Source of the DNA: a virus
Lineage: Duplodnaviria > Heunggongvirae > Uroviricota > Caudoviricetes
Reading direction: 5' to 3' (one strand)
Virus record (IMG/VR): IMGVR_UViG_2585427778_000001
Length of the DNA stretch: 16,845 nucleotides
Positions 1-16,845 of this stretch are shown here, in pieces. A program made the translations under genes and the position numbers. The notes below the pieces were generated by a model. It ran no database searches. It was not told the origin of the DNA and saw only the letters and a program-made list of their open reading frames with translations. Within the stretch, counting starts at the first letter, position 1; each line of letters opens with the position of its first letter.

Positions 1-15
1 GCTTTTTTATACTAA
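1..15. other. attP: Phage lambda-type attachment site core (GCTTTTTTATACTAA)
   Basis: Exact lambda att core 15-mer at window start, followed by the P' arm and int on the minus strand. Confidence 0.9.
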
Positions 16-92
16 GTTGGCATTATAAAAAAGCATTGCTTATCAATTTGTTGCAACGAACAGGTCACTATCAGTCAAAATAAAATCATTAT
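16..92. promoter_or_regulatory. att P' arm: IHF H' site (ATCAAtttgTTG, about 41-53) and three tandem Int arm-type sites (caggtcactat / cagtcaaaat / aaatcattat, about 61-91)
   Basis: Sequence matches IHF consensus WATCAANNNNTTR and the lambda Int arm-type consensus; position between core and int stop is as in lambda. Confidence 0.75.
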
Positions 93-1159
93 TTGATTTC
101 AATTTTGTCCCACTCCCTGCCTCTGTCATCACGATACTGTGATGCCATGGTGTCCGACTTATGCCCGAGAAGATGTTGAGCAAACTTATCGCTTATCTGC
201 TTCTCATAGAGTCTTGCAGACAAACTGCGCAACTCGTGAAAGGTAGGCGGATCCCCTTCGAAGGAAAGACCTGATGCTTTTCGTGCGCGCATAAAATACC
301 TTGATACTGTGCCGGATGAAAGCGGTTCGCGACGAGTAGATGCAATTATGGTTTCTCCGCCAAGAATCTCTTTGCATTTATCAAGTGTTTCCTTCATTGA
401 TATTCCGAGAGCATCAACATGCAATACTGTTGGGATGGCAATTTTTACGCCTGTTTTGCTTTGCTCGACATAAAGATATCCATCTACGATATCAGACCAC
501 TTCATTTCGCATAAATCACCAACTCGTTGCCCGGTAACAACAGCCAGTTCCATTGCAAGTCTGAGCCAACATGGTGATGATTCTGCTGCTTGATAAATTT
601 TCAGGTATTCGTCAGCCGTAAGTCTTGATCTCCTTACCTCTGATTTTGCTGCGCGAGTGGCAGCGACAGGGTTTGTTGTTATATGGCCTTCAGCTATTGC
701 CTCTCGGAATGCATCGCTCAGTGTTGATCTGATTAACTTGGCTGACGCCGCCTTGCCCTCGTCTATGTATCCATTGAGCATTGCCGCAATTTCTTTTGTG
801 GTGATGTCTTCAAGTGGAGCATCAGGCAGACCCCTCCTTATTGCTTTAATTTTGCTCATGTAATTTATGAGTGTCTTCTGCTTGATTCCTCTGCTGGCCA
901 GGATTTTTTCGTAGCGATCAAGCCATGAATGTAACGTAACGGAATTATCACTGTTGATTCTCGCTGTCAGAGGCTTGTGTTTGTGTCCTGAAAATAACTC
1001 AATGTTGGCCTGTATAGCTTCAGTGATTGCGATTCGCCTGTCTCGGCCTAATCCAAACTCTTTACCCGTCCTTGGGTCCCTGTAGCAGTAATATCCATTG
1101 TTTCTTATATAAAGGTTAGGGGGTAAATCCCGGCGCTCATGACTTCGCCTTCTTCCCAT
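89..1159 (-). CDS. int: Integrase Int, tyrosine recombinase (356 aa)
   Basis: ORF translation matches lambda Int as recalled (MGRRRSHERRDLPPNLYIRNNGYY... C-terminal catalytic region); ATG start at 1159. Confidence 0.97.
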   Translation of the reverse strand: MGRRRSHERRDLPPNLYIRNNGYYCYRDPRTGKEFGLGRDRRIAITEAIQANIELFSGHKHKPLTARINSDNSVTLHSWLDRYEKILASRGIKQKTLINYMSKIKAIRRGLPDAPLEDITTKEIAAMLNGYIDEGKAASAKLIRSTLSDAFREAIAEGHITTNPVAATRAAKSEVRRSRLTADEYLKIYQAAESSPCWLRLAMELAVVTGQRVGDLCEMKWSDIVDGYLYVEQSKTGVKIAIPTVLHVDALGISMKETLDKCKEILGGETIIASTRREPLSSGTVSRYFMRARKASGLSFEGDPPTFHELRSLSARLYEKQISDKFAQHLLGHKSDTMASQYRDDRGREWDKIEIK

Positions 1160-1355
1160 TTCTGATCCTCTTCAAAAGGCTACCTGTTACTGGTCGATTT
1201 AAGTCAACCTTTACCGCTGATTCGTGGAACAGATATTCTCTTCCATCCTTAACCGGAGGAGGGAATATCCTGCATTCGCGCACCCATCGACGAACTGTTT
1301 CAAGGCTTCTTGGGCGTCGCTGGCGAGCGTTCCACTCCTGAAGTGTCAAGTACAT
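1137..1355 (-). CDS. xis: Excisionase Xis (72 aa)
   Basis: Translation MYLTLQEWNARQRRPRSLETVRRWVRE... matches lambda Xis; overlaps the int start as in lambda. Confidence 0.95.
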   Translation of the reverse strand: MYLTLQEWNARQRRPRSLETVRRWVRECRIFPPPVKDGREYLFHESAVKVDLNRPVTGSLLKRIRNGKKAKS

Positions 1356-1367
1356 CGCAAAGTCTCC

Positions 1368-1381
1368 GCAATTACACGCAA
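1368..1381 (-). promoter_or_regulatory. CII-dependent pI promoter motif TTGC-N6-TTGC (ttgcgtgtaattgc on the minus strand)
   Basis: CII recognition repeat directly upstream of and overlapping the xis 5' end, as in lambda pI. Confidence 0.6.
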
Positions 1382-1573
1382 GAAAAAACCGCCATCAGGC
1401 GGCTTGGTGTTCTTTCAGTTCTTCAATTCGAATATTGGTTACGTCTGCATGTGCTATCTGCGCCCACAGCATCCAGTGGTCATAGCAGTCGCTGATGTTC
1501 TCGGCTTCGATAACTCTGTTGAATGGTTCTCCATTCCATTCACCTGTAACTCGGAAGTGCATTTATCATCGCC

Positions 1574-1630
1574 ATAAAACAAAACTCGCCGTAGCGAGTT
1601 CAGATAAAAGAAAACCCGCACTCGGCGGGT
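1574..1630 (-). terminator. Two tandem intrinsic terminators on the minus strand
   Basis: Hairpin 1 ACTCGC-cgta-GCGAGT (1584-1599) and hairpin 2 ACCCGC-actcg-GCGGGT (1614-1630); each is followed on the minus strand by a T-rich run (plus-strand A-runs at 1574-1583 and 1604-1613). Confidence 0.6.
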
Positions 1631-1910
1631 TCGCATTCGTTCAAATTGCGTTTACTTCTTGGCGTTCTGTTCATCCATATCGATATACCATGGGTTGCTT
1701 CCCTTGGGCATGTTTAACGACTGCTCGCGATAGTATCTGATGCGCTCCATGAAATACTCGCGTGAGTGCTCAAGTTGCTCTCATGATACCTGCTCAGTGA
1801 TAACAGGTATGTTAAGGCGCTCTCTGTACTCCATGCCTGATGCTGCAAGGTCAACGTTTACCTTGTTCTGTTTTTCTTTCGATTTCTCGGCGATGTTATG
1901 CCTGACATTG

Positions 1911-2153
1911 TCAACCCGCCTCCTTCTGAACATAACGGTTATAAATCAGTCCCTGAGGGCCATAAGGAAGCGGGATGTGCAACTCCTCTGGTTCAGAAAC
2001 TATCCATTCCCCGGCCATCTCCGCTGGAGAGGTAATGATAAGTTGTTTGCTAATAAAAGGACCACTCCTCTCAACAACAAGCTTACCATCTTCATTAATA
2101 AAAGCTTGGGTGTCAGGTGTGCTTCCACACTTGGTGATGCAGCGTTTGAACAT
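1911..2153 (-). CDS. Hypothetical protein (80 aa from the MFKR start; the ORF extends to 2195)
   Basis: Minus-strand ORF co-oriented with the pL operon; ATG at 2153 is preceded by a G-rich Shine-Dalgarno-like run (GGGGGG). No recognisable family. Confidence 0.5.
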   Translation of the reverse strand: MFKRCITKCGSTPDTQAFINEDGKLVVERSGPFISKQLIITSPAEMAGEWIVSEPEELHIPLPYGPQGLIYNRYVQKEAG

Positions 2154-2183
2154 TTTGTGTCCCCCCATTTTATGGACGGGGTA

Positions 2184-2192
2184 ATTATAACA
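2184..2192 (-). promoter_or_regulatory. Candidate extended -10 promoter (TGtTATAAT on the minus strand) for the 80-aa gene
   Basis: Perfect TATAAT with upstream TG in an AT-rich spacer about 30 nt upstream of the ATG at 2153; no good -35. Confidence 0.3.
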
Positions 2193-2279
2193 CATTGAAA
2201 TATAGTAATATTTGACGTAGATTTCTTTTGATCTATAAGCGATTTTTTAATGCTTTTAAGTTATAAATACTTGTTTTCA

Positions 2280-2855
2280 TCACCCATCTTGCTGCGGTGC
2301 TACTATTGAAAAGTACTCACACCCTTTAGCCCAAATAGTTTTGATAGTTGTCCAACTGACTGGAACCTTGATTTCGATTCTTCCGCTGCCGTCACAAGTT
2401 TCGCAATCATCATCACCAAAGCATTCCGGGCAGCTTATAAACGTAGTTTCTGAAAATTCACCGGATAGCACACCCTTAGCGCCGTTCTCAGCGGTTAGTT
2501 TCTTCGGCACTATAACCCAACCATCCGGAGTTACCGGAGAGTTGCCATTTATATCGAAGTTTGGCTCTGCGTCCTGAACCAGGAGGATGTAACCATTCTT
2601 GGCAGTATCAAGTTCTAACGCCTCGGTGACGGTACCGAAATAGCGATTACCTAAATCCGCATCACAAGTGCTTACATCAATGGAAACCTCCATGCCTTCG
2701 ATTAATTCTGGCAAGTTGTAAGTTTGGCTTACAGGTTCTGCTCCCAGTGATGCCAGTGCAATTCGTGCCAGTTCCATTTGTTCGCCACGAGTAAGCCCGT
2801 TTTCAAGCGGATTTTTAATGAACAATTCAATACGTTCTTTGGTAATAGTGGTCAT
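2280..2855 (-). CDS. Hypothetical protein, 191 aa, with C-terminal zinc-ribbon-like motif CPEC-x6-CETC
   Basis: Intact ORF with ATG start and AAGGA Shine-Dalgarno-like sequence; lies 10 bp downstream of the Tgt-like gene on the same strand. Cys pairs at CPECFGDDDCETCDGSG. Confidence 0.6.
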   Translation of the reverse strand: MTTITKERIELFIKNPLENGLTRGEQMELARIALASLGAEPVSQTYNLPELIEGMEVSIDVSTCDADLGNRYFGTVTEALELDTAKNGYILLVQDAEPNFDINGNSPVTPDGWVIVPKKLTAENGAKGVLSGEFSETTFISCPECFGDDDCETCDGSGRIEIKVPVSWTTIKTIWAKGCEYFSIVAPQQDG

Positions 2856-2865
2856 TTGTTAGTCC

Positions 2866-3621
2866 TTAAACTGCTAGTTGCAATTGCATTTCAAAGCGGT
2901 CGCGTTGTTCACAATACGCAAGAGAACCAGGGCTATTGTGTGCCTCAATCCGTTCTACCATTAATGCTGCGCGTGTCTCTTTACTTGCAGGTGCATAAGC
3001 CCCAGACCAGGCTTTATCAATACCGATGTTTCGAGCGACGTTCGTACTATCTGCGCTGGCTAAGGGTAATTTTGTGAATATCAGCGGATTTAACATGCGC
3101 AATCCATGTAGTTTCGTAACCGGCTGACCATGCCCATCAACAATGTGACGAATCAGGTCTTTCATTCTGGCTACCGCAAGAGTTGGGCGCTTTACGTCAT
3201 AGTCGCCACAACTACCGATAGCCACTCGCGGAAACTCATTGCACAAATGAATAAATCGCTCGTCACTTTCATTCATGTGCCACACTGGAACGCCAGCTAG
3301 TTTTCCGTGAGGCCACTCATTCAGAAGCGCATCATTTTCCTCCTCTCCGCCATCAATAACATCCGGGATAATGGCAAAATCGAATCCTGGGTGATTCTTC
3401 CAGCGAGCAACAAACTCGTAGTAATCGCTCCAGTCGATTTTGTTTTTGCCAGCTGCTTTCCAGGCGGTGAATGCACCGTTGTCCAGCGCGAACGACTGAC
3501 AGTATTCAGCCGCGAGATTGATCTGGCCTGAATGCGCAAAACTGATAAACGCATGTCGCCCTTTCCATGCTCTCATTGCGCACGTATCAGGAGTAATAGG
3601 CCCACCGTGGTAGTGAATCAT
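2866..3621 (-). CDS. Putative Tgt/DpdA-family transglycosylase-like protein (about 251 aa from MIHYHGG; the ORF extends to 3663)
   Basis: Strong AAGGAG Shine-Dalgarno sequence before the ATG at 3621. Ordered motif resemblance to the Tgt catalytic core, from memory of E. coli Tgt: LDNGAF vs TDSGGFQ; DFAIIPDV vs DIVMIFDEC; VAIGSCG vs YAVGGLAVG; HGLRMLNP vs YLMGVGKP; ADSTNVARNIG vs FDCVMPTRNARNG. No C-terminal CxCxxC...H zinc subdomain. Confidence 0.5.
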   Translation of the reverse strand: MIHYHGGPITPDTCAMRAWKGRHAFISFAHSGQINLAAEYCQSFALDNGAFTAWKAAGKNKIDWSDYYEFVARWKNHPGFDFAIIPDVIDGGEEENDALLNEWPHGKLAGVPVWHMNESDERFIHLCNEFPRVAIGSCGDYDVKRPTLAVARMKDLIRHIVDGHGQPVTKLHGLRMLNPLIFTKLPLASADSTNVARNIGIDKAWSGAYAPASKETRAALMVERIEAHNSPGSLAYCEQRDRFEMQLQLAV

Positions 3622-3622
3622 C

Positions 3623-4030
3623 TCACTCTCCTTTGATGCGAATGCCAGTAGCGCGGATTGCATCGATGACTTCAGAAACTTTGTATGCCATTACCGTTTG
3701 GTAATCATCGTGAAAATCTGTTCGATGAAGCATGCTGCTACGTTCCGGGAGCAGTATTTCCCGCGCTTCCAGTTCTGCAATGCGCTTTTTTGCTGCTTCC
3801 AGTTCATCCAGTAATTCCAGCACGGTAGCCGGATTAGCCTTGGCAACAAAATCCCGGACTGGCTTACAATCAATCTCCGCAATGGGTTGATACGATGTGT
3901 AGCCATGCTGTCTTGTATAACTACCGTGACGAATAACGAAAAAATCACCATTTATTTTTTTAGCCTGCCACTTATCTTCACCGGCTTTCTCTGCCGCTTC
4001 ACGCAGTGCCTGAGAGTTAATTTCGCTCAC
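3623..4030 (-). CDS. Ead/Ea22-like family protein (135 aa)
   Basis: N-terminal QALREAAEKA and coiled-coil LELLDELEAAKKRIAELEA segments typical of prophage Ea22-like proteins as recalled; GTG start overlaps the upstream stop (GTGA), and its stop lies 1 nt from the downstream ATG. Confidence 0.55.
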   Translation of the reverse strand: MSEINSQALREAAEKAGEDKWQAKKINGDFFVIRHGSYTRQHGYTSYQPIAEIDCKPVRDFVAKANPATVLELLDELEAAKKRIAELEAREILLPERSSMLHRTDFHDDYQTVMAYKVSEVIDAIRATGIRIKGE

Positions 4031-4248
4031 TTCGAACCTCTCTGTTTACTGATAAGTTCCAGATCCTCCTGGCAACTTGCACAAGTCCGACAACCCTGAA
4101 CGGCCAAGCGTCTTCGTTCATCTATCGGATCGCCACACTCACAACAATGAGTGGCAGATATAGCCTGGTGGTTCAGGCGGCGCATTTTTATTGCTGTGTT
4201 GCGCTGTAATTCTTCAATTTCTGATGCTGAATCAATGATGTCTGCCAT
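4027..4248 (-). CDS. TraR/DksA-family C4-type zinc finger protein (73 aa)
   Basis: Small protein with CxxC-x17-CxxC (CCECGDP...CRTCASC) and a size typical of phage TraR homologs; ATG start. Confidence 0.7.
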   Translation of the reverse strand: MADIIDSASEIEELQRNTAIKMRRLNHQAISATHCCECGDPIDERRRLAVQGCRTCASCQEDLELISKQRGSK

Positions 4249-4297
4249 CTTTCATTAATCCCTGAATTGTTGGTTAATACGCTTGAGGGTGAATGCG

Positions 4298-4324
4298 AAT
4301 AATAAAAAAGGAGCCTGTAGCTCC
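4298..4324 (-). terminator. Intrinsic terminator on the minus strand between orf61 and the accessory cassette
   Basis: Hairpin GGAGC-tacag-GCTCC followed on the minus strand by TTTTTTATTATT. Confidence 0.6.
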
Positions 4325-4346
4325 CTGATGATTTTGCTTTTCATGT

Positions 4347-4562
4347 TCACCGTTCCTTAAAAACGCCGTTTAACATGCCGATTGCCAGGCTTAAATGAGT
4401 CGGTGTGAATCCCATCAGCGTTACCGTTTCGCGGTGCTTCTTCAGTACGCTACGGCAAATGTCATCGACGTTTTTATCCGGAAACTGCTGTCTGGCTTTT
4501 TTGATTTCAGAATTAGCCTGACGGGCAATACTGCGAAGGGCGTTTTCCTGCTGAGGTGTCAT
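4347..4562 (-). CDS. Lambda orf61-like protein (start uncertain; the ORF extends to 4628)
   Basis: Translation MTPQQENALRSIARQANSEIKKARQQFPDK... matches lambda orf61 as recalled and sits in the lambda position. Confidence 0.7.
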   Translation of the reverse strand: MTPQQENALRSIARQANSEIKKARQQFPDKNVDDICRSVLKKHRETVTLMGFTPTHLSLAIGMLNGVFKER

Positions 4563-4638
4563 TGAACAAGTCCCATGTCGGCAAGCATAAGCACACAGAA
4601 TATGAAGCCCGCTGCCAGAAAAATGCATTCAGTGGTTG

Positions 4639-4830
4639 TCATACCTGGTCTCTCTCATCTGCTTCTGCTTTCGCCACCATCATTTCCAGCTTTTGTGAAA
4701 GGGATGTGGCTAACGTATGAAATTCTTCGTCTGTTTCTACTGGTATTGGCACAAACCTGACTCCAATTTGAGCAAGGCTATGTGCCATCTCAATACTCGT
4801 TCTTAACTCAACAGGAGATGCTTTGTGCAT
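4639..4830 (-). CDS. Lambda orf63-like protein (63 aa)
   Basis: Position and size match lambda orf63; collinear with the lambda coordinate offset used for exo. Confidence 0.75.
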   Translation of the reverse strand: MHKASPVELRTSIEMAHSLAQIGVRFVPIPVETDEEFHTLATSLSQKLEMMVAKAEADERDQV

Positions 4831-4985
4831 ACCGTCTCCCGTTTATTATTTATCTTCTCAGCCAGCCGCTGTGCTTTCAGTGGATTTCTGATAACAGAAA
4901 GGCCGGGAAATACCCAGCCTCGCTTTGTAACGGAGTAGACGAAAGTGATCGCGCCTACCCGGATATTATCGTGAGGATGCGTCAT
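4803..4985 (-). CDS. Lambda orf60a-like protein (60 aa)
   Basis: Translation [43 protein letters not shown]... matches lambda orf60a; immediately upstream of exo. Confidence 0.75.
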
Positions 4986-5662
4986 CGCCATTGCTCCCCA
5001 AATACAAAACCAATTTCAGCCAGTGCCTCGTCCATTTTTTCGATGAACTCCGGCACCATCTCGTCAAAACTCGCCATGTACTTTTCATTCCGCTCAATCA
5101 CGACATAATGCAGGCCTTCACGCTTCATGCGCGGGTCATAGTTGGCAAAGTACCAGGCATCTTTTCGAGTCACCCACATGCTGTACTGCACCTGGGCCAT
5201 GTAAGCCGATTTTATTGCCTCGAAACCACCGAGCCGGAATTTCATGAAATCCCGGGAGGTAAACGGGCATTTCAGCTCAAGGCCATTGCCGTCACTGCAT
5301 AAACCATCGGGAGAGCAGGCGGTGCGCATACCTTCGTCGCGATAGATGATCGGGGATTCAGTAACATTTACGCCGGAAGTGAACTCAAACAGGGTTCTGG
5401 CGTCGTTCTCGTACTGTTTTCCCCAGGCCAGCGCTTTAGCGTTAACTTCCGGAGCCACACCGGTGCAAACCTCAGCCAGCAGGGTGTGGAAGTAGGACAT
5501 TTTCATGTCAGGCCACTTTTTTCCGGAGCGGGGTTTTGCTATCACATTGTGAACTTCTGAAGCGGTGATGACGCCGAGCCGTAATTTGTGCCACGCATCA
5601 TCCCCCTGTTCGACAGCTCTCACGTCGATTCCGGTACGCTGCAGGATAATGTCCGGTGTCAT
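4982..5662 (-). CDS. exo: Lambda exonuclease (Red alpha), 226 aa
   Basis: Translation matches lambda Exo ([31 protein letters not shown]...); overlaps the bet stop. Confidence 0.97.
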
Positions 5663-6444
5663 GCAGCCACCTTCTGCTCAGAGGCTTTCTGTTTCAGGAA
5701 TCCAAGAACTTTCACTGCTTCGGCCTGTGCCAGTTCTGACGATGCGCGAATGTCGCGGCGAAATATCTGGGAACAGAGCGGCAATAAGTCGTCATCCCAT
5801 GTTTTATCCAGGGCGATCAGCAGAGTGTTAATCTCCTGCATGGTTTCATCGTTAACCGGAGTGATGTCGCGTTCCGGCTGACGTTCTGCAGTGTATGCAG
5901 TATTTTCGACAATGCGCTCGGCTTCATCCTTGTCATAGATACCAGCAAATCCGAAGGCCAGACGGGCACACTGAATCATGGCTTTATGCCGTAACATCCG
6001 TTTGGGATGCGACTGCCACGGTCCGGTGATTTCTCTGCCTTCGCGGGTTTTGAATGGTTCGCGGCGGCATTCATCCATCCACTCGGTAACGCAGATCGGA
6101 TGATTGCGGTCTTTGCGGTAAATCCGGCATGTGCAGGATTCGTTGTCCTGTTCAAAGTCCATGCCGTCAAACTGCTGGTTTTCGTTGATGATGCGGGACC
6201 AGCCATCAACGCCCACCACCGGAACGATGCCGTTCTGCTTATCAGGGAAGGCGTAAATTTCTTTCGTCCACGGATTAAGACCGTACTGGTTGGCGACGAT
6301 CAGCAATGCGATGAACTGCGCATCGCTGGCATCACCTTTAAATGCCGTCTGGCGAAGAGTGGTGATCAGTTCCTGTGGGTCGACAGAATCCATGCCGACT
6401 CGTTCAGCCAGCTTCCCAGCCAGCGTTGCGAGTGCTGTACTCAT
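5659..6444 (-). CDS. bet: Red beta single-strand annealing protein, 261 aa
   Basis: Translation matches lambda Bet ([44 protein letters not shown]...). Confidence 0.97.
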
Positions 6445-6449
6445 CCGTT

Positions 6450-6866
6450 TTATACCTCTGAATCAATATCAACCTGGTGGTGAGCAATGGTTTCAACCAT
6501 GTACCGGATGTGTTCTGCCATGCGCTCCTGAAACTCAACATCGTCATCAAACGCACGGGTAATGGCTTTTTTGCTGGCCCCGTGGCGTTGCAAATGATCG
6601 ATGCATAGCGATTCAAACAGGTGCTGGGGCAGGCCTTTTTCCATGTCGTCTGCCAGTTCTGCCTCTTTCTCTTCACGGGCGATCTGCTGGTAGTGACGCG
6701 CCCAGCTCTGAGCCTCAAGACGATCCTGAATGTAATAAGCGTTCATGGCTGAACTCCTGAAATAGCTGTGAAAATATCGCCCGCGAAATGCCAGGCTGAT
6801 TAGGAAAACAGGAAAGGGGGTTAGTGAATGCTTTTGCTTGATCTCAGTTTCAGCATTAATATCCAT
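6450..6866 (-). CDS. gam: Gam, RecBCD inhibitor, 138 aa
   Basis: Translation matches lambda Gam ([24 protein letters not shown]...). Confidence 0.97.
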
Positions 6867-6964
6867 TTTTTATAAGCGTCGACGGCTTCACGAAACATCT
6901 TTTCATCGCCAATAAAAGTGGCGATAGTGAATTTAGTCTGGATAGCCATACGTGTTTGATCCAT
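6821..6964 (-). CDS. kil: Kil, host-killing / FtsZ inhibitor (47-aa form; the ORF extends upstream to 7090)
   Basis: C-terminal 47 aa [47 protein letters not shown] match lambda Kil; overlaps the gam start by 46 nt as in lambda. Confidence 0.85.
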
Positions 6965-7097
6965 TCTTTGGGACTCCTGGCTGATTAAGTATGTCGATAA
7001 GGCGTTTCCATCCGTCACGTAATTTACGGGTGATTCGTTCAAGTAAAGATTCGGAAGGGCAGCCAGCAACAGGCCACCCTGCAATGGCATATTGCAT
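6933..7097 (-). CDS. cIII: CIII, protects CII from FtsH, 54 aa
   Basis: Hand translation of the minus strand gives [54 protein letters not shown], matching lambda CIII; below the ORF-track size cutoff. Confidence 0.9.
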   Translation of the reverse strand: MQYAIAGWPVAGCPSESLLERITRKLRDGWKRLIDILNQPGVPKNGSNTYGYPD

Positions 7098-7169
7098 GGT
7101 GTGCTCCTTATTTATACATAACGAAAAACGCCTCGAGTGAAGCGTAATTGGTATGCGGTAACGCCGCGC

Positions 7170-7538
7170 TCAGGCGGCTTTGACAGTCATATCATCTGGA
7201 TCAAATATTCCTGATGTATCGATATCGGTAATTCTTATTCCTTCGCTACCATCCATTGGAGGCCATCCTTCCTGACCACTTCCATCATTCCAGTCGAACT
7301 CACACACAACACCATATGCATTTAAGTCGCTTGAAATTGCTATAAGCAGAGCATGTTGCGCCAGCATGATTAATACAGCATTTAATACAGAGCCGTGTTT
7401 ATTGAGTCGGTATTCAGAGTCTGACCAGAAATTATTAATCTGGTGAAGTTTTTCCTCTGTCATTACGTCATGGTCGATTTCAATTTCTATTGATGCTTTC
7501 CAGTCGTAATCAATGATGTATTTTTTGATGTTTGACAT
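7170..7538 (-). CDS. ea10: Ea10, 122 aa
   Basis: Size and position match lambda ea10 with the same coordinate offset as exo through ral. Confidence 0.85.
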   Translation of the reverse strand: MSNIKKYIIDYDWKASIEIEIDHDVMTEEKLHQINNFWSDSEYRLNKHGSVLNAVLIMLAQHALLIAISSDLNAYGVVCEFDWNDGSGQEGWPPMDGSEGIRITDIDTSGIFDPDDMTVKAA

Positions 7539-7554
7539 CTATTCATATCCTCAT

Positions 7555-7584
7555 AGATAAAAAATCTCCCTCACACTGGAGGGC
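7555..7584 (-). terminator. Candidate intrinsic terminator on the minus strand between ral and ea10
   Basis: 5-bp GC stem CCCTC-cagtgt-GAGGG followed by AGATTTTTTATC on the minus strand; the stem is short. Confidence 0.4.
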
Positions 7585-7720
7585 AAAGAAGATTTCCAAT
7601 AATCAGAACAAGTCGGCTCCTGTTTAGTTACGAGCGACATTGCTCCGTGTATTCACTCGTTGGAATGAATACACAGTGCAGTGTTTATTCTGTTATTTAT
7701 GCCAAAAATAAAGGTCACTA

Positions 7721-7921
7721 TCAGGCAGCTTTGTTGTTCTGTTTACCAAGTTCTCTGGCAATCATTGCCGTCGTTCGTATTGCCCATTTATCGACATATT
7801 TCCCATCTTCCATTACAGGAAACATTTCTTCAGGCTTAACCATGTATTCCGATTGCAGCTTGCATCCATTGCATCGCTTGAATTGTCCACACCATTGATT
7901 TTTATCAATAGTCGTAGTCAT
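7721..7921 (-). CDS. ral: Ral, restriction alleviation protein, 66 aa
   Basis: Translation MTTTIDKNQWCGQFKRCNGCKLQSEYMVKPEEMFPVMEDGKYVDKWAIRTTAMIARELGKQNNKAA matches lambda Ral. Confidence 0.95.
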   Translation of the reverse strand: MTTTIDKNQWCGQFKRCNGCKLQSEYMVKPEEMFPVMEDGKYVDKWAIRTTAMIARELGKQNNKAA

Positions 7922-7991
7922 ACGGATAGTCCTGGTATTGTTCCATCACATCCTGAGGATGCTCTTCGAACTCTTCAAATTCTTCTTCCAT
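7905..7991 (-). CDS. Lambda orf28-like acidic peptide, 28 aa
   Basis: Hand translation MEEEFEEFEEHPQDVMEQYQDYPYDYDY; overlaps the ral start in the lambda arrangement. Confidence 0.6.
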   Translation of the reverse strand: MEEEFEEFEEHPQDVMEQYQDYPYDYDY

Positions 7992-8118
7992 ATATCACCT
8001 TAAATAGTGGATAGCGGTAGTAAAGATTGTGCCTGTCTTTTAACCACATCAGGCTCGGTGGTTCTCGTGTACCCCTACAGCGAGAAATCGGATAAACTAT
8101 TACAACCCCTACAGTTTG

Positions 8119-8670
8119 ATGAGTATAGAAATGGATCCACTCGTTATTCTCGGACGAGTGTTCAGTAATGAACCTCTGGAGAGAACCATGTATATGATCG
8201 TTATCTGGGTTGGACTTCTGCTTTTAAGCCCAGATAACTGGCCTGAATATGTTAATGAGAGAATCGGTATTCCTCATGTGTGGCATGTTTTCGTCTTTGC
8301 TCTTGCATTTTCGCTAGCAATTAATGTGCATCGATTATCAGCTATTGCCAGCGCCAGATATAAGCGATTTAAGCTAAGAAAACGCATTAAGATGCAAAAC
8401 GATAAAGTGCGATCAGTAATTCAAAACCTTACAGAAGAGCAATCTATGGTTTTGTGCGCAGCCCTTAATGAAGGCAGGAAGTATGTGGTTACATCAAAAC
8501 AATTCCCATACATTAGTGAGTTGATTGAGCTTGGTGTGTTGAACAAAACTTTTTCCCGATGGAACGGGAAGCATATATTATTCCCTATTGAGGATATTTA
8601 CTGGACTGAATTAGTTGCCAGCTATGATCCATATAATATTGAGATAAAGCCAAGGCCAATATCTAAGTAA
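8119..8670 (+). CDS. sieB: Superinfection exclusion protein SieB (the ORF begins at a TTG at 8116; first ATG at 8119)
   Basis: Plus-strand gene between ral and N and convergent with N, as in lambda; hydrophobic N-terminal region (IVIWVGLLLL, FVFALAFSLAI). Confidence 0.85.
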   Translation: MSIEMDPLVILGRVFSNEPLERTMYMIVIWVGLLLLSPDNWPEYVNERIGIPHVWHVFVFALAFSLAINVHRLSAIASARYKRFKLRKRIKMQNDKVRSVIQNLTEEQSMVLCAALNEGRKYVVTSKQFPYISELIELGVLNKTFSRWNGKHILFPIEDIYWTELVASYDPYNIEIKPRPISK

Positions 8671-8994
8671 CTAAGTAAGAGGAATCGATTTTCCCTTAAT
8701 TTTCTGGCGTCCACTGCATGTTATGCCGCGTTCGCCAGGCTTGCTGTACCATGTGCGCTGATTCTTGCGCTCAATACGTTGCAGGTTGCTTTCAATCTGT
8801 TTGTGGTATTCAGCCAGCACTGTAAGGTCTATCGGATTTAGTGCGCTTTCTACTCGTGATTTCGGTTTGCGATTCAGCGAGAGAATAGGGCGGTTAACTG
8901 GTTTTGCGCTTACCCCAACCAACAGGGGATTTGCTGCTTTCCATTGAGCCTGTTTCTCTGCGCGACGTTCGCGGCGGCGTGTTTGTGCATCCAT
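8671..8994 (-). CDS. N: N transcription antiterminator, 107 aa (the ORF extends upstream to 9126)
   Basis: MDAQTRRRERRAEKQAQWKAANPLLVGVSAKPVNRPILSLNRKPKSRVESALNPIDLTVLAEYHKQIESNLQRIERKNQRTWYSKPGERGITCSGRQKIKGKSIPLT matches lambda N with the arginine-rich motif. Confidence 0.95.
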   Translation of the reverse strand: MDAQTRRRERRAEKQAQWKAANPLLVGVSAKPVNRPILSLNRKPKSRVESALNPIDLTVLAEYHKQIESNLQRIERKNQRTWYSKPGERGITCSGRQKIKGKSIPLT

Positions 8995-9151
8995 CTGGAT
9001 TCTCCTGTCAGTTAGCTTTGGTTGTGTGTGGGAGTCGTAGTCCTGAACGAAAACACCCAGCAATGGCACATTGACAGCTAATCCGGATTCGCACTTCCGG
9101 CCAATGCTTCGTTTCGTATCACACACACCAAAGCCTTCTGCTTTGAATGCT

Positions 9152-9182
9152 GCCCTTCTTCAGGGCTTAATTTTTAAGAGCA
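9152..9182 (-). promoter_or_regulatory. nutL (boxA TGCTCTTAAAAATTAA and boxB hairpin GCCCTGAAGAAGGGC, read on the minus strand)
   Basis: Near-exact match to lambda nutL boxA/boxB, upstream of N. Confidence 0.85.
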
Positions 9183-9222
9183 TCACCTTCATGGTGGTCA
9201 GTGCGTCCTGCTGATGGCCTAA

Positions 9223-9307
9223 AATATACCTACAGGTAAAACAGTTGTCTATACCTGCAGGTAAATAAAATTGATGTAAGAGTTTACCTGCTTGAATTTT
9301 CAGGTAA
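9223..9307 (-). promoter_or_regulatory. pL/oL region of a non-lambda immunity type
   Basis: Candidate pL TAGACA-17bp-TATATT on the minus strand (plus 9246-9251 and 9223-9228), overlapped by palindromic operator-like sites TATACCTACAGGTAAA (9225-9240), TATACCTGCAGGTAAA (9250-9265) and TTACCTG-N10-CAGGTAA (9284-9307). Confidence 0.6.
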
Positions 9308-9323
9308 TTAATTTTTTGGATTG

Positions 9324-9349
9324 ATATAAAAAAGCCCGCTTTGCGGGCT
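9324..9349 (-). terminator. Intrinsic terminator on the minus strand ending the repressor operon
   Basis: Hairpin AGCCCGC-aaa-GCGGGCT followed by TTTTTATATCAA on the minus strand, immediately downstream of the 104-aa gene. Confidence 0.75.
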
Positions 9350-9360
9350 GAAAGGAGATG

Positions 9361-9675
9361 TCAGAAGCTATTTGGATTGCTTGGCCATTGCGGCAATTTT
9401 GATTCTACTGGGGTGTGTTTGGGTTTGAGTCCGTTTAAGTAGTCAAGACGCTCAATGGCGCATTTATACATAGCAATCTGCTCTGATGACATGTCGTCGT
9501 ATGACATGCCTTTGAACTTTTTAATTATCGATTCTGCCTCATGTATAAGATGCTTCTTCTTCATGAGTTCAGCTGTATGCTTAGAGCTTACAGGAGATAA
9601 CTTTGCCCATATGAAGCAGATGATTACAACAGCGACTACTATGCCGGGTATAAACACTTGCTGCTTTATCCTCAA
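9361..9675 (-). CDS. Small membrane-anchored protein (98-104 aa) co-transcribed downstream of cI
   Basis: The ORF begins at a TTG overlapping the cI stop (TTGA); a likelier start is GTG at 9657 with a GAGGA Shine-Dalgarno sequence. One N-terminal hydrophobic helix (FIPGIVVAVVIICFIWA) then a charged helical region. No family recognised. Confidence 0.6.
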   Translation of the reverse strand: MRIKQQVFIPGIVVAVVIICFIWAKLSPVSSKHTAELMKKKHLIHEAESIIKKFKGMSYDDMSSEQIAMYKCAIERLDYLNGLKPKHTPVESKLPQWPSNPNSF

Positions 9676-10358
9676 ACTTTTGGCAGATCGTCCTGGTCTA
9701 CGTACCTGGTGTGTTTCACAATAGCTGAAACAAAATGCATTTTATCAACTTCTTCAACAGGAAGAGTGATTGGGCGGTGATCACTGTTTATGCTACTAAA
9801 CTGATAATCACCGTCTCTTGTTTTGTTCATGATCTTTATCATGTTGTGACCGTCTTTGGTCCTTACAAAGACTTCATCACCTGGATGTACTGGCGTATTT
9901 GGTTCAATAACAACATATTCTCCTGACTGAATCCTTGGCCACATGCTGTCACCCTTAACCTTCAGACCGTAAGCATCGTTATCGCCGCTGTAGATGCTTA
10001 ACCAACCGGATCTGAATTCAATCATATCCACTGAGCCATCAACTCCCAAAACGGCTTCACCAATTACCGGAACAAAACCCGCACGAACGTTACCCGCAAA
10101 CTCAAGATGGTCTGTAGCTCCAGCTTTACCATCTGCAAGCATGTCCATCCATCCGCGTGGGAGATTAAAAGATTTTTCAATTAGTTCCATCATATCGTCA
10201 GCAATGCGTTTTTTTCCGCTTTTTCCTTCCGGATACAGCATTCTGGAAACGTATGATGGTTCCCTTTCTATTCGACGAGCCAACTCTGAGGCCTTTCCAT
10301 TACAGAATCGGTCTCTTATCTCTATCAGCCTTAGTCGTCTTTGTTCGTATTTATCCAT
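9672..10358 (-). CDS. cI: CI-type prophage repressor (HTH plus LexA-like S24 autopeptidase domain), 228 aa, not lambda cI
   Basis: N-terminal HTH (ASELARRIEREPSYVSRML), a candidate Ala-Gly cleavage site (EFAGNV) and C-terminal GDSMWP...K serine/lysine dyad motifs; divergent from cro across an operator region. Confidence 0.85.
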   Translation of the reverse strand: MDKYEQRRLRLIEIRDRFCNGKASELARRIEREPSYVSRMLYPEGKSGKKRIADDMMELIEKSFNLPRGWMDMLADGKAGATDHLEFAGNVRAGFVPVIGEAVLGVDGSVDMIEFRSGWLSIYSGDNDAYGLKVKGDSMWPRIQSGEYVVIEPNTPVHPGDEVFVRTKDGHNMIKIMNKTRDGDYQFSSINSDHRPITLPVEEVDKMHFVSAIVKHTRYVDQDDLPKV

Positions 10359-10377
10359 GATTTAATTCTATCTTTGA

Positions 10378-10434
10378 TTACCTGCCGGTAAATAACCTAT
10401 GGGTATTGATTTGCTTTTTACCTACAGGTAAACT
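10378..10434. promoter_or_regulatory. oR/pR/pRM region with three operator-like sites
   Basis: TTACCTGCCGGTAAA (10378-10392), TAACCTATGGGTATT (about 10394-10408) and TTACCTACAGGTAA (10418-10431); candidate pR TTGATT (10406-10411) -17bp- TAAACT (10429-10434) upstream of cro. Confidence 0.6.
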
Positions 10435-10466
10435 CATCTTATTCAACAACGGGAAGGAGATAGCAA

Positions 10467-10697
10467 ATGGAAGAACTCCGCTTGTATCTGAACTCCCTTT
10501 CACTGGAAGAGCAGAGAGAATTTGCCACCAAGTGCGGAACTTCTATCGGCTATTTGAGGAAAGCACTTAGCCGTAATCATGAATTGGGCGCAGCACTTTG
10601 TGTTCTGATTGAGAAGTTCAGCAATGGTGAAGTGACTCGCAAAGACCTTCATCCGGTTGATTGGGAAAGCATCTGGCCTGAATTAATGGCCGCTTAA
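10467..10697 (+). CDS. cro: Cro-like HTH regulator, 76 aa
   Basis: First rightward gene after oR, strong GGAAGGAGA Shine-Dalgarno sequence, HTH-like segment ATKCGTSIGYLRKAL. Confidence 0.7.
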   Translation: MEELRLYLNSLSLEEQREFATKCGTSIGYLRKALSRNHELGAALCVLIEKFSNGEVTRKDLHPVDWESIWPELMAA

Positions 10698-10705
10698 GTT
10701 ATTAA

Positions 10706-13087: not shown

Positions 13088-13528
13088 ATGAAAAAACTAA
13101 CCTTTGAAATTCGATCTCCAGCACATCAGCAAAACGCTATTCACGCAGTACAGCAAATCCTTCCAGACCCAACCAAACCAATCGTAGTAACCATTCAGGA
13201 ACGCAACCGCAGCTTAGACCAAAACAGGAAGCTATGGGCCTGCTTAGGTGACGTCTCTCGTCAGGTTGAATGGCACGGTCGCTGGCTGGATGCAGAAAGC
13301 TGGAAGTGTGTGTTTACCGCAGCATTAAAGCAGCAGGATGTTGTTCCTAACCTTGCCGGGAATGGCTTTGTGGTAATAGGCCAGTCAACCAGCAGGATGC
13401 GTGTAGGCGAATTTGCGGAGCTATTAGAGCTTATACAGGCATTCGGTACAGAGCGTGGCGTTAAGTGGTCAGACGAAGCGAGACTGGCTCTGGAGTGGAA
13501 AGCGAGATGGGGAGATCGGGCTGCATGA
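13088..13528 (+). CDS. ninB: NinB (Orf family recombination mediator), 146 aa
   Basis: Matches lambda NinB starting MKKLTFEIRSPAHQQNAIHAVQQILPDPTKPIVV... Confidence 0.9.
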   Translation: MKKLTFEIRSPAHQQNAIHAVQQILPDPTKPIVVTIQERNRSLDQNRKLWACLGDVSRQVEWHGRWLDAESWKCVFTAALKQQDVVPNLAGNGFVVIGQSTSRMRVGEFAELLELIQAFGTERGVKWSDEARLALEWKARWGDRAA

Positions 13529-14052
13529 CTATCAAATCAAATACGCCAGCACACGACAAGGACTGCTGGCAAACGCCGCTTTGGCTTTTTGATGCACTGG
13601 ATATTGAGTTTGGATTCTGGCTGGATTCGGCAGCGAGCGACAAAAATGCTCTGTGTGCTCACTGGCTAACTGAGGCCGACGACGCGCTCAATTCTGAGTG
13701 GGTAAGCCACGGTGCAATCTGGAATAACCCACCGTACAGCAATATCAGGCCGTGGGTGGAAAAAGCTGCTGAGCAGTGCATACAACAGCGACAGACGGTA
13801 GTTATGCTTGTGCCAGAGGATATGTCAGTCGGATGGTTCAGCAAGGCTCTGGAGAGTGTCGACGAAGTTCGCATTATCACTGATGGACGGATTAATTTTA
13901 TCGAACCATCGACAGGGCTGGAGAAGAAGGGAAACAGCAAAGGCTCCATGCTGCTGATTTGGCGACCGTTCATCAGTCCTCGACGGATGTTTACTACCGT
14001 ATCCAAAGCGGCATTGATGGCGATCGGGCAGGGCGTCAGGAGGGCGGCATGA
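13525..14052 (+). CDS. Phage orphan DNA N6-adenine methyltransferase (Dam-like), about 175 aa, in the position of lambda ninC
   Basis: NPPY catalytic motif (WNNPPYS) and the DKDCWQTP N-terminal motif typical of phage N6-adenine methyltransferases; ATG overlaps the ninB stop (ATGA). Confidence 0.8.
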
Positions 14053-16082: not shown

Positions 16083-16137
16083 GGTGATGCTGCCAACTTA
16101 CTGATTTAGTGTATGATGGTGTTTTTGAGGTGCTCCA

Positions 16138-16413
16138 GTGGCTTCTGTTTCTATCAGCTGTCCCTCCTGTTCAGCTACTGACGGGGTGGTGCGTAACGGC
16201 AAAAGCACCGCCGGACATCAGCGCTATCTCTGCTCTCACTGCCGTAAAACATGGCAACTGCAGTTCACTTACACCGCTTCTCAACCCGGTACGCACCAGA
16301 AAATCATTGATATGGCCATGAATGGCGTTGGATGCCGGGCAACTGCCCGCATTATGGGCGTTGGCCTCAACACGATTTTACGTCACTTAAAAAACTCAGG
16401 CCGCAGTCGGTAA
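16138..16413 (+). CDS. insA: IS1 InsA, 91 aa (GTG start)
   Basis: Translation [43 protein letters not shown]... matches IS1 InsA; the A6C frameshift motif TTAAAAAACTC (about 16389-16395) lies near its 3' end. Confidence 0.95.
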
Positions 16414-16835
16414 CCTCGCGCATACAGCCGGGCAGTGACGTCATCGTCTGCGCGGAAATGGACGAACAGTGGGGCTATGTCGGGGCTAAATCGCGCCAGC
16501 GCTGGCTGTTTTACGCGTATGACAGGATACGGAGGACGGTTGTTGCGCACGTATTCGGTGAACGCACGCTGGCCACGCTGGAGCGTCTTCTGGGCCTGCT
16601 GTCGGCCTTTGAGGTCGTGGTATGGATGACAGATGGCTGGCCGCTTTATGAATCACGCCTGAAGGGAGAACTGCACGTTATCAGCAAGCGATATACGCAG
16701 CGCATTGAGCGGCATAACCTGAATCTGAGGCAGCATCTGGCAAGGCTGGGCAGGAAGTCACTGTCGTTCTCAAAATCGGTGGAGCTGCATGACAAAGTCA
16801 TCGGGCATTATCTGAACATAAAACACTATCAATAA
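16332..16835 (+). CDS. insB: IS1 InsB frame (167-aa ORF; expressed as the InsAB' transposase by -1 frameshift)
   Basis: Translation matches IS1 InsB (…[21 protein letters not shown]…[49 protein letters not shown]). Confidence 0.9.
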
Positions 16836-16845
16836 GTTGGAGTCA

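Follow-up and report, generated by a model that had tools for sequence, protein, structure and literature searches.

The region between exo and xis of lambda and of Shiga toxin (Stx) phages comprises a conserved block that extends through ea22, followed by genes varying in number and kind (PMC8614690). In a separate field of study, phages encoding a stand-alone DpdA were assembled into group 3, the 'DpdA-only' phages, with 76 members whose modification status was described as 'difficult to predict' and which might use host preQ0 (Hutinet 2019; PMC6884629); Supplementary Data 1 of that work lists HK106, SfI, SPN3UB, BTP1, SEN1 and 7-11 among them. Here we describe a stretch of viral DNA of 16,845 nucleotides (Caudoviricetes; IMG/VR record IMGVR_UViG_2585427778_000001), referred to as the window, in which the variable tail of a lambda-type exo-xis segment carries, at 2866-3621 on the minus strand, a dpdA-like gene whose product of 251 amino acids (aa) appears to be a stand-alone DpdA-family transglycosylase.

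The amounts of modification reported for DpdA-carrying phages differ widely. Phages 9g, CAjan, Iggy and Vid5 encode FolE, QueD, QueE and QueC beside dpdA, and replace 7-32% of the G in their DNA (25% in 9g, 32% in CAjan, 16.5% in Iggy and 7.6% in Vid5), and expression of the 9g DpdA by itself in E. coli led to dPreQ0 in plasmid DNA, with preQ0 supplied by the host. Among the DpdA-only phages, dADG amounts to ~0.02% of G in 7-11, and to ~0.13% of G, together with traces of dPreQ0, in MED16. On the bacterial side, the solved structure of the DpdA from the dpd cluster of Salmonella Montevideo (PDB 7UI4) assigned Asp95 as general acid/base acting with Phe99, Asp130 and His181 to base recognition, and Asp256 as the nucleophile, and defined the motif of the Zn site of bacterial DpdA and TGT (PMC10164549).

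Results

A replaced segment in a lambda early-left region

Positions 1-9216 of the window are a lambda early-left region with a non-lambda insert-replacement. In megablast searches, lambda and its relatives matched at ~98% identity across two thirds of the first 7.2 kb, and blastn against NC_001416 aligned window 1-1617 with lambda 27724-29340 (98.6%) and window 3989-9216 with lambda 30354-35583 (98.0%). Since the lambda blocks end at 1617 and restart at 3989, the replaced segment is 1618-3988, that is, 2371 bp of non-lambda DNA in place of 1013 bp of lambda containing ea8.5 and most of ea22. A previous reading of the window made from its letters and open reading frames (ORFs), hereafter the first-pass annotation, had proposed ~3 kb of non-lambda DNA at this locus, with lambda resuming at orf61 (4346) and the same coordinate offset on both sides. 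The alignment with lambda, which that annotation had suggested as a check, confirmed that a non-lambda segment is present and mapped its breakpoints (1617/3989); however, the segment is smaller than claimed, lambda resumes inside ea22, and the offsets are +24 on the left side and -1334 on the right. The closest genome is that of E. coli 2018-18.25PC (NZ_AP023286), which is 100% identical over 1500-4400 and whose prophage adjoins ybhC, the lambda attachment site.

The segment has the position and orientation of the lambda/Stx exo-xis region (PMC8614690; PMC4195576), with the same upstream block (orf60a, orf63, orf61, t2, orf73 and the start of ea22) and the same downstream anchor (t3/t4, orf55, t5, xis and int); the first-pass description of a known variable slot of lambdoid phages agrees with that literature (PMC8614690). 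In contrast to lambda, an ea22 allele, dpdA, a 191-aa gene, an 80-aa gene and a probable theta pseudogene replace ea8.5 within the ~98% lambda backbone. In HK106, a lambdoid coliphage with a lambda-type int-xis-orf55, a DpdA 36% identical to that of the window occupies the same slot, adjoining orf55. All five minus-strand ORFs listed in the first-pass annotation exist, and a further coding feature missing from it, the theta/Hot-like gene, lies at 1652-1933.

The rightmost of those five ORFs, orf73 (4027-4248, minus strand), codes for a TraR homologue of 73 aa (PF01258, E 7.7e-9; score 35.8 bits, cutoff 24.9) and belongs to the lambda backbone, with 72 of its 73 residues identical to those of a lambda ORF that is intact and unannotated in the RefSeq record. 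Lambda Orf73 is a characterized TraR homologue (PMC9239242), and apart from the one substitution there is no other difference of note. The TraR-like label given previously was therefore correct, but since lambda carries the same ORF intact, orf73 is not cargo, as had been assumed.

The adjacent ea22 allele (135 aa; 3623-4030, minus strand) was likewise labeled properly as Ead/Ea22-like, matching PF13935 (E 2.6e-17; score 64.1 bits, cutoff 27) and phrog_1667 (E 1.7e-56). Its GTG start overlaps the orf73 stop (GTGA, 4027-4030) exactly as in lambda; 14 codons at its start and 8 at its end are those of lambda, and its middle differs. The right lambda junction (3989) falls within those first 14 codons. 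The other end of the gene forms part of a 29-bp lambda-identical island (3620-3648, minus strand; 100% match to lambda 29844-29872), which corresponds to the 3' end of lambda ea22 and includes its final 8 codons with the stop, along with an AAGGAG Shine-Dalgarno sequence now serving dpdA. This island looks like a conserved recombination joint for module exchange.

Distribution of the pieces

Across 5426 complete E. coli genomes, we counted how often the segment genes occur together. The dpdA allele was present in 201 of them, accompanied by this ea22 allele in 131 and followed downstream by the 191-aa gene in 39, and the whole arrangement was found in 29 of the 5426; parts of the 191-aa gene occurred in ~1600 genomes, mostly without dpdA. 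Among phage records, none contained the whole arrangement. The best one, Stx1a phage EH2115, shares 2744-4500, BTP1 shares 2835-3622 only, and strain ACN001 has, in a torI-type prophage, 1560-2546 and 2744-2869 in common with the window.

The genes surrounding dpdA vary to a similar extent, as the genes that it tightly abuts on either side differ among BTP1, SfI, Eeyore, AH07 and HK106. The upstream and downstream neighbors are, respectively, Ea22-like and EaA/DUF550 genes in BTP1, DUF1317 and a hypothetical gene in SfI, DksA-like and exonuclease genes in Eeyore, and ParB and RusA genes in AH07. The segment is a mosaic, and dpdA has no conserved gene partner. On these comparisons, 1618-3988 appears to be the variable tail of a lambdoid exo-xis segment in the pL operon, built of at least four independently assorting pieces (the ea22 middle; dpdA; the 191-aa gene; and the 80-aa gene with the theta-like pseudogene) that meet at short conserved joints.

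The 251-aa protein and the DpdA family

The 251-aa start of the dpdA-like product (MIHYHGG...) was set by its homologues, an upstream ATG giving 265 aa. The protein matched phrog_887, annotated as "queuine tRNA-ribosyltransferase" (E 5e-104), which together with its homology to DpdA upholds the Tgt-like label of the first-pass annotation. It belongs to a family of ~250-aa proteins with more than 7800 word-index matches, all unnamed, and with 1537 clusters at 50% identity in an exhaustive profile search, distributed across Enterobacterales, Vibrio and Aeromonas and with strongly conserved catalytic residues. In tblastn searches against phage genomes, identity reached 93% for BTP1 and SPN3UB and 68% for SfI, and fell to 38% for MED16 gp38 (E 2e-34), 36% for 7-11 and 26% for the experimentally characterized DpdA of Iggy (E 1e-5); the proteins of HK106, MED16 and 7-11 (36-38% identical) constitute another subclade. 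As the Hutinet 2019 survey already contained the relatives from BTP1, SPN3UB and SfI, the stand-alone DpdA kind to which this protein would belong had been catalogued.

The relationship with experimentally validated DpdA proteins was also detected by BLASTP against the 9g DpdA (E 3e-8) and by hhalign, in which the family profile, built without Iggy, matched a 9g+Vid5+Iggy profile at 98.8% (E 6e-17, 153 columns, residues 39-199). The motifs D47-x-G-x-F51, D87, H115, H172-G and D191-S192 are retained; D47, H172, D191 and S192 were invariant among 46 diverse family members, and D87, H115 and L174 were conserved in at least 90% of them. In the alignment, L-D47-N-G-A-F51 coincides with LDSGAF of 9g, Iggy and Vid5, A-D191-S192 with C-D-S of 9g and Iggy, H172-G with VHGFG, and H115 with CFH. 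From this correspondence, D47 and F51 would be the counterparts of Asp95 and Phe99 of the Salmonella DpdA, whose roles are taken from PMC10164549, and D191 that of Asp256, as judged from motif order and not from structural superposition; His181 likewise has its match among the conserved residues, and the counterpart of Asp130 is ambiguous and could be D87 or D90. H172 is the conserved His of DpdA1, 'position 196' in Hutinet 2019, which is absent from DpdA2 (PMC6884629). Homology and catalytic residues thus point to a stand-alone DpdA-family transglycosylase.

The protein shares with the DpdA1 of 9g, CAjan, Iggy and Vid5 a homologous core with the motifs LD(N/S)GAF, (W/F)H, HG and (A/C)DS, but their identity is only 22-26%, the window protein is ~60 residues shorter at both ends, and the genes for preQ0 synthesis located beside dpdA in those phages have no counterpart in the window. 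Compared with the Salmonella Montevideo enzyme (413 aa), it is devoid of Ins8 and of the CxCx2Cx22H Zn site, has no DpdB or DpdC partner and shows no sequence-level PDB match. The closest resemblance is to the DpdA-only phages, which also carry a stand-alone DpdA without preQ0 genes and are gamma-proteobacterial phages with hosts that make preQ0; the window differs from them in its true lambda-type backbone and in the neighboring genes.

Other searches with the 251-aa protein returned no named domain. It had no match in NCBIfam or PADLOC; PDB sequence and profile searches, whether with the single protein, with its close family or with the broad family, yielded chance matches only, and Foldseek against the PDB retrieved generic TIM barrels only, such as TrpA. 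An hhalign comparison with one E. coli Tgt sequence lacked significance, which is uninformative since the validated DpdA1 profile lacked it as well. None of the 46 family members, including the Iggy DpdA, matched TGT or DUF6610 in Pfam, so that plain hidden Markov models cannot connect this family to TGT. In 192 E. coli genomes, the dpdA ORF was intact and showed an identity of at least 99%. Two phage database records (OR850331.1, MW057783.1) look mislabelled or contaminated: 'Staphylococcus phage SA 1298 Kay', of 1719 bp, codes for a protein with 93% identity to the window DpdA, and 'Campylobacter phage CJLB-4' matches the window at the same stretches and identity as lambda.

Terminators and transcription

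The scan for terminators yielded two tandem terminator-like hairpins on the minus strand downstream of the last cargo gene (1612-1632; 1582-1601), both with a T-run after them, and another on the same strand between orf61 and orf73, at 4308-4326. Fold energies were -24.3 kcal/mol for the pair at 1582-1632 (z -2.7) and -10.2 kcal/mol for the hairpin at 4308-4326 (z -3.4), the z-scores of the terminator sites thus ranging from -2.7 to -3.4; 16 terminator-like sites were observed, against 7.3 +/- 2.6 in shuffles. By the hairpin and U-run criterion, these sites are predicted to be intrinsic terminators. In comparison with the predicted lambda terminators t1-t5 listed by Bloch et al. 2014 (Table 4; PMC4195576), the sequence at 4308-4326 is identical to t2-lambda, the tandem pair comprises the counterparts of t3 and t4, and t5 corresponds to 1386-1405. 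Lambda forms the same hairpin pair at the same place (z -6.6), and the left lambda junction (1617) falls within the upstream hairpin of the window pair. The terminators that had been proposed to flank the cassette are therefore present, but they are t2 and t3/t4 of the lambda backbone and were not brought with the insert.

A sigma-70 scan detected no minus-strand promoter in 1574-4346, and both nutL and N are located within the lambda-identical block 3989-9216. Most likely, the segment would be transcribed from pL as the distal part of the operon, with N antitermination reading through t2. A candidate internal promoter was noted 31 nt upstream of the start of the 80-aa gene, namely a perfect extended -10 element, TGTTATAAT (2184-2192, minus strand), which we placed in the 84-bp AT-rich gap at 2196-2279. 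It is the sole TGNTATAAT in the window, where 0.5 are expected by chance, and is not statistically distinguishable from chance; it might conceivably give the 80-aa gene and the theta remnant a promoter of their own. If this promoter were real, both genes and the tandem terminators could constitute a self-contained moron.

The 191-aa, 80-aa and theta-like genes

Downstream of dpdA, the 191-aa gene (2280-2855, minus strand) encodes a modular Ea-type protein of phrog_60 (E 1.4e-41, annotated as of unknown function), in which a leader of 37 aa precedes a C-terminal module that is near-invariant, is ~150 aa long and holds CPECFGDDDCETCDGSG, a single DnaJ-type Cys4 knuckle. In other E. coli prophages, the same module is joined to Ead/Ea22, DUF550 or DUF551 N-terminal domains. 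No match was obtained in Pfam, NCBIfam or PADLOC, and the AlphaFold2 model was unusable (pLDDT 35). The NCBI name of this protein, "molecular chaperone DnaJ", was rejected, as only one CxxC...CxxCxGxG knuckle is visible, with no domain model, no J domain and no set of four CxxCxGxG repeats.

The 80-aa gene (1911-2153, minus strand; 94 aa from an upstream ATG) corresponds to phrog_9613 (E 2.7e-50), also annotated as of unknown function, and its product had no Pfam, NCBIfam or PADLOC match. Its start was set by homologues, in agreement with the coding sequence coordinates of the Prokaryotic Genome Annotation Pipeline (PGAP). The gene overlaps the theta-like start by 23 nt, and in strain ACN001 it accompanies the theta-like gene and the terminators within a different prophage.

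The theta-like frame (1652-1933, minus strand), identified by PGAP and by translation, is a homologue of DNA polymerase III theta (HolE) and P1 Hot, and its codon 51 is an in-frame TGA. Identity amounts to 60-61% with the theta of Klebsiella phage 2b and with P1 Hot (61% over the full length of the latter); however, the TGA occupies a codon that is Arg in the intact homologues, and the frame of ~76-98 aa is not intact. In three genomes, its PGAP label is 'DNA polymerase III subunit theta, internal stop', and the same TGA was present in all 3 other E. coli genomes checked, in two prophage contexts. Given the position of the TGA, the product would be at most a 50-aa N-terminal fragment, barring read-through. 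The gene is probably a pseudogene, and may be either one that is spreading or a read-through gene. This allele occurs in 89 complete genomes; at position 1773, downstream of the stop, the window and NZ_AP023286 have A where most copies have G, a change from Pro to Leu.

Other features of the window

To the left of the segment, the minus strand encodes int (89-1159), xis (1137-1355) and orf55 (1395-1562), and to its right orf61, orf63, orf60a, exo (4982-5662), bet and gam. The prophage of NZ_AP023286 is otherwise 99.98% identical to the window, and a copy of insertion sequence IS1 interrupts sieB there. In the window, sieB (8116-8670) is uninterrupted and an IS1 copy, inverted relative to that of NZ_AP023286, constitutes the right end (16083-16845); given this different placement of IS1, the window is not an exact copy of the NZ_AP023286 prophage. 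The immunity region (9217-10705), which encodes a repressor (9672-10358) and a cro-like gene (10467-10697), is non-lambda, the homology to lambda ending just past nutL and restarting near cII, and hence the phage would be heteroimmune to lambda despite its lambda-type N/nutL. The sole Rfam match in the window was the cIII thermoregulator Lambda_thermo (7052-7110, minus strand; 88.5 bits), with no match inside the replaced segment. In the nin region, an N6-adenine DNA methyltransferase is encoded at 13525-14052 on the plus strand (PGAP name, from an identical copy in L003), so that this prophage pairs a Dam-like methyltransferase with a singleton DpdA, as Pantoea phage MED16 does.

Discussion

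Our explanation of this locus is that of a mosaic variable tail of the pL operon whose DpdA would insert a host-made 7-deazaguanine at low level, to which we assign a probability of about 60%. In the proposed reaction, DpdA would take guanine out of replicated DNA and put preQ0 of host origin, or a derivative of it, in its place, with Asp47 serving as general acid/base and Asp191 as the nucleophile through which an intermediate linking enzyme and DNA covalently would arise. No FolE, QueD, QueE or QueC genes are present within the 16.8-kb window, and DpdA would therefore use host preQ0. E. coli encodes the preQ0 pathway, and queA-tgt was seen in E. coli; the supply would come from its FolE-QueD-QueE-QueC pathway, and a small fraction of guanine would become 7-deazaguanine (dPreQ0 or dADG), as measured for 7-11 and MED16. 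Within the segment, an anti-defence role is plausible for dpdA only, and unproven, and any benefit against restriction is an inference.

Several points weigh against this explanation. The Zn-binding CxCx2C...H motif is absent, as there is only one Cys after D191, and Pfam TGT (PF01702) gave no match at E up to 1; the Zn site is likewise absent from the validated DpdA proteins of 9g, Iggy and Vid5. MED16 displayed no detectable protection from the restriction enzymes tried, and levels were very low in the DpdA-only phages measured. Expression of the segment may also be modest, since transcripts downstream of t2 were lower in lambda (PMC4195576), and literature searches for DpdA in lambdoid or temperate phages retrieved no functional study of the BTP1/SfI-type subclade.

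A different target for the enzyme was considered, although we regard it as unlikely: the TGT-like protein could act off DNA, at the queuosine site of tRNA, on a protein, in the manner of Cap10 of the type IV cyclic oligonucleotide-based antiphage signaling system (CBASS), or as a sink for free preQ0, thereby reprogramming the host or countering a deazaguanine-dependent defence. In a more specific form, which we hold to be quite unlikely, the Zn-less BTP1/SfI-type DpdA would not serve bulk anti-restriction at all, and would either place sparse, site-specific marks for regulation or self-recognition, or have a non-DNA target through deazaguanine-protein conjugation as Cap10 does, for example neutralizing deazaguanine-dependent defence. 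Among complete E. coli genomes, 3.7% carry DpdA of this type, as do thousands of gamma-proteobacterial prophages.

It is also improbable that the segment is for the most part drifting cargo, with no function at present and recombined at conserved joints, and that dpdA is selectively neutral. The theta-like nonsense codon has spread with its block, insertion sequences interrupt the segment in some genomes, and modification is low or absent in some DpdA-only phages, with no modification detected in Orion, all of which such drift would accommodate; against it stand the size of the dpdA family, the strong conservation of all catalytic residues throughout it, and an ORF that is intact in nearly all E. 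coli copies.

Finally, the first-pass proposal that tight coupling denotes one functional module, with orf73, ea22, dpdA and the 191-aa gene as a co-adapted unit bearing its own terminators, such as a multi-protein anti-defence device, is very unlikely and largely refuted by gene distribution. In its favor, the reported packing is exact (the GTGA overlap, then spacers of 1 nt at 3622 and 10 nt at 2856-2865), 131 of the 201 E. coli genomes with dpdA have it linked to this ea22 allele, and an Ead/Ea22-like gene precedes dpdA in BTP1 and RothD too. Against it, tight packing is the norm across the whole operon, orf73 and the ea22 start are lambda DNA with the same overlap in lambda, where dpdA is absent, the neighbors of dpdA differ on both sides among phages, the 191-aa gene follows it in only 39 of its 201 carriers, and the flanking terminators are those of lambda.

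Returning to the mosaic pL tail with a DpdA that would act on DNA at low level, the finding serves chiefly as an example of already known mosaic evolution at a hotspot that was also known, and in that respect it is mostly ordinary. The question of the role that stand-alone DpdA plays in temperate phages dates from 2019, and the two DpdA-only members measured contained traces of dADG only and had no shown benefit. Owing to its ~98% lambda backbone, to the lambda attachment site by ybhC and to its E. coli host, this phage would make the question of singleton DpdA testable with standard lambda/K-12 genetics, and it is of value mainly as a case on a lambda backbone that is genetically tractable for singleton DpdA function.

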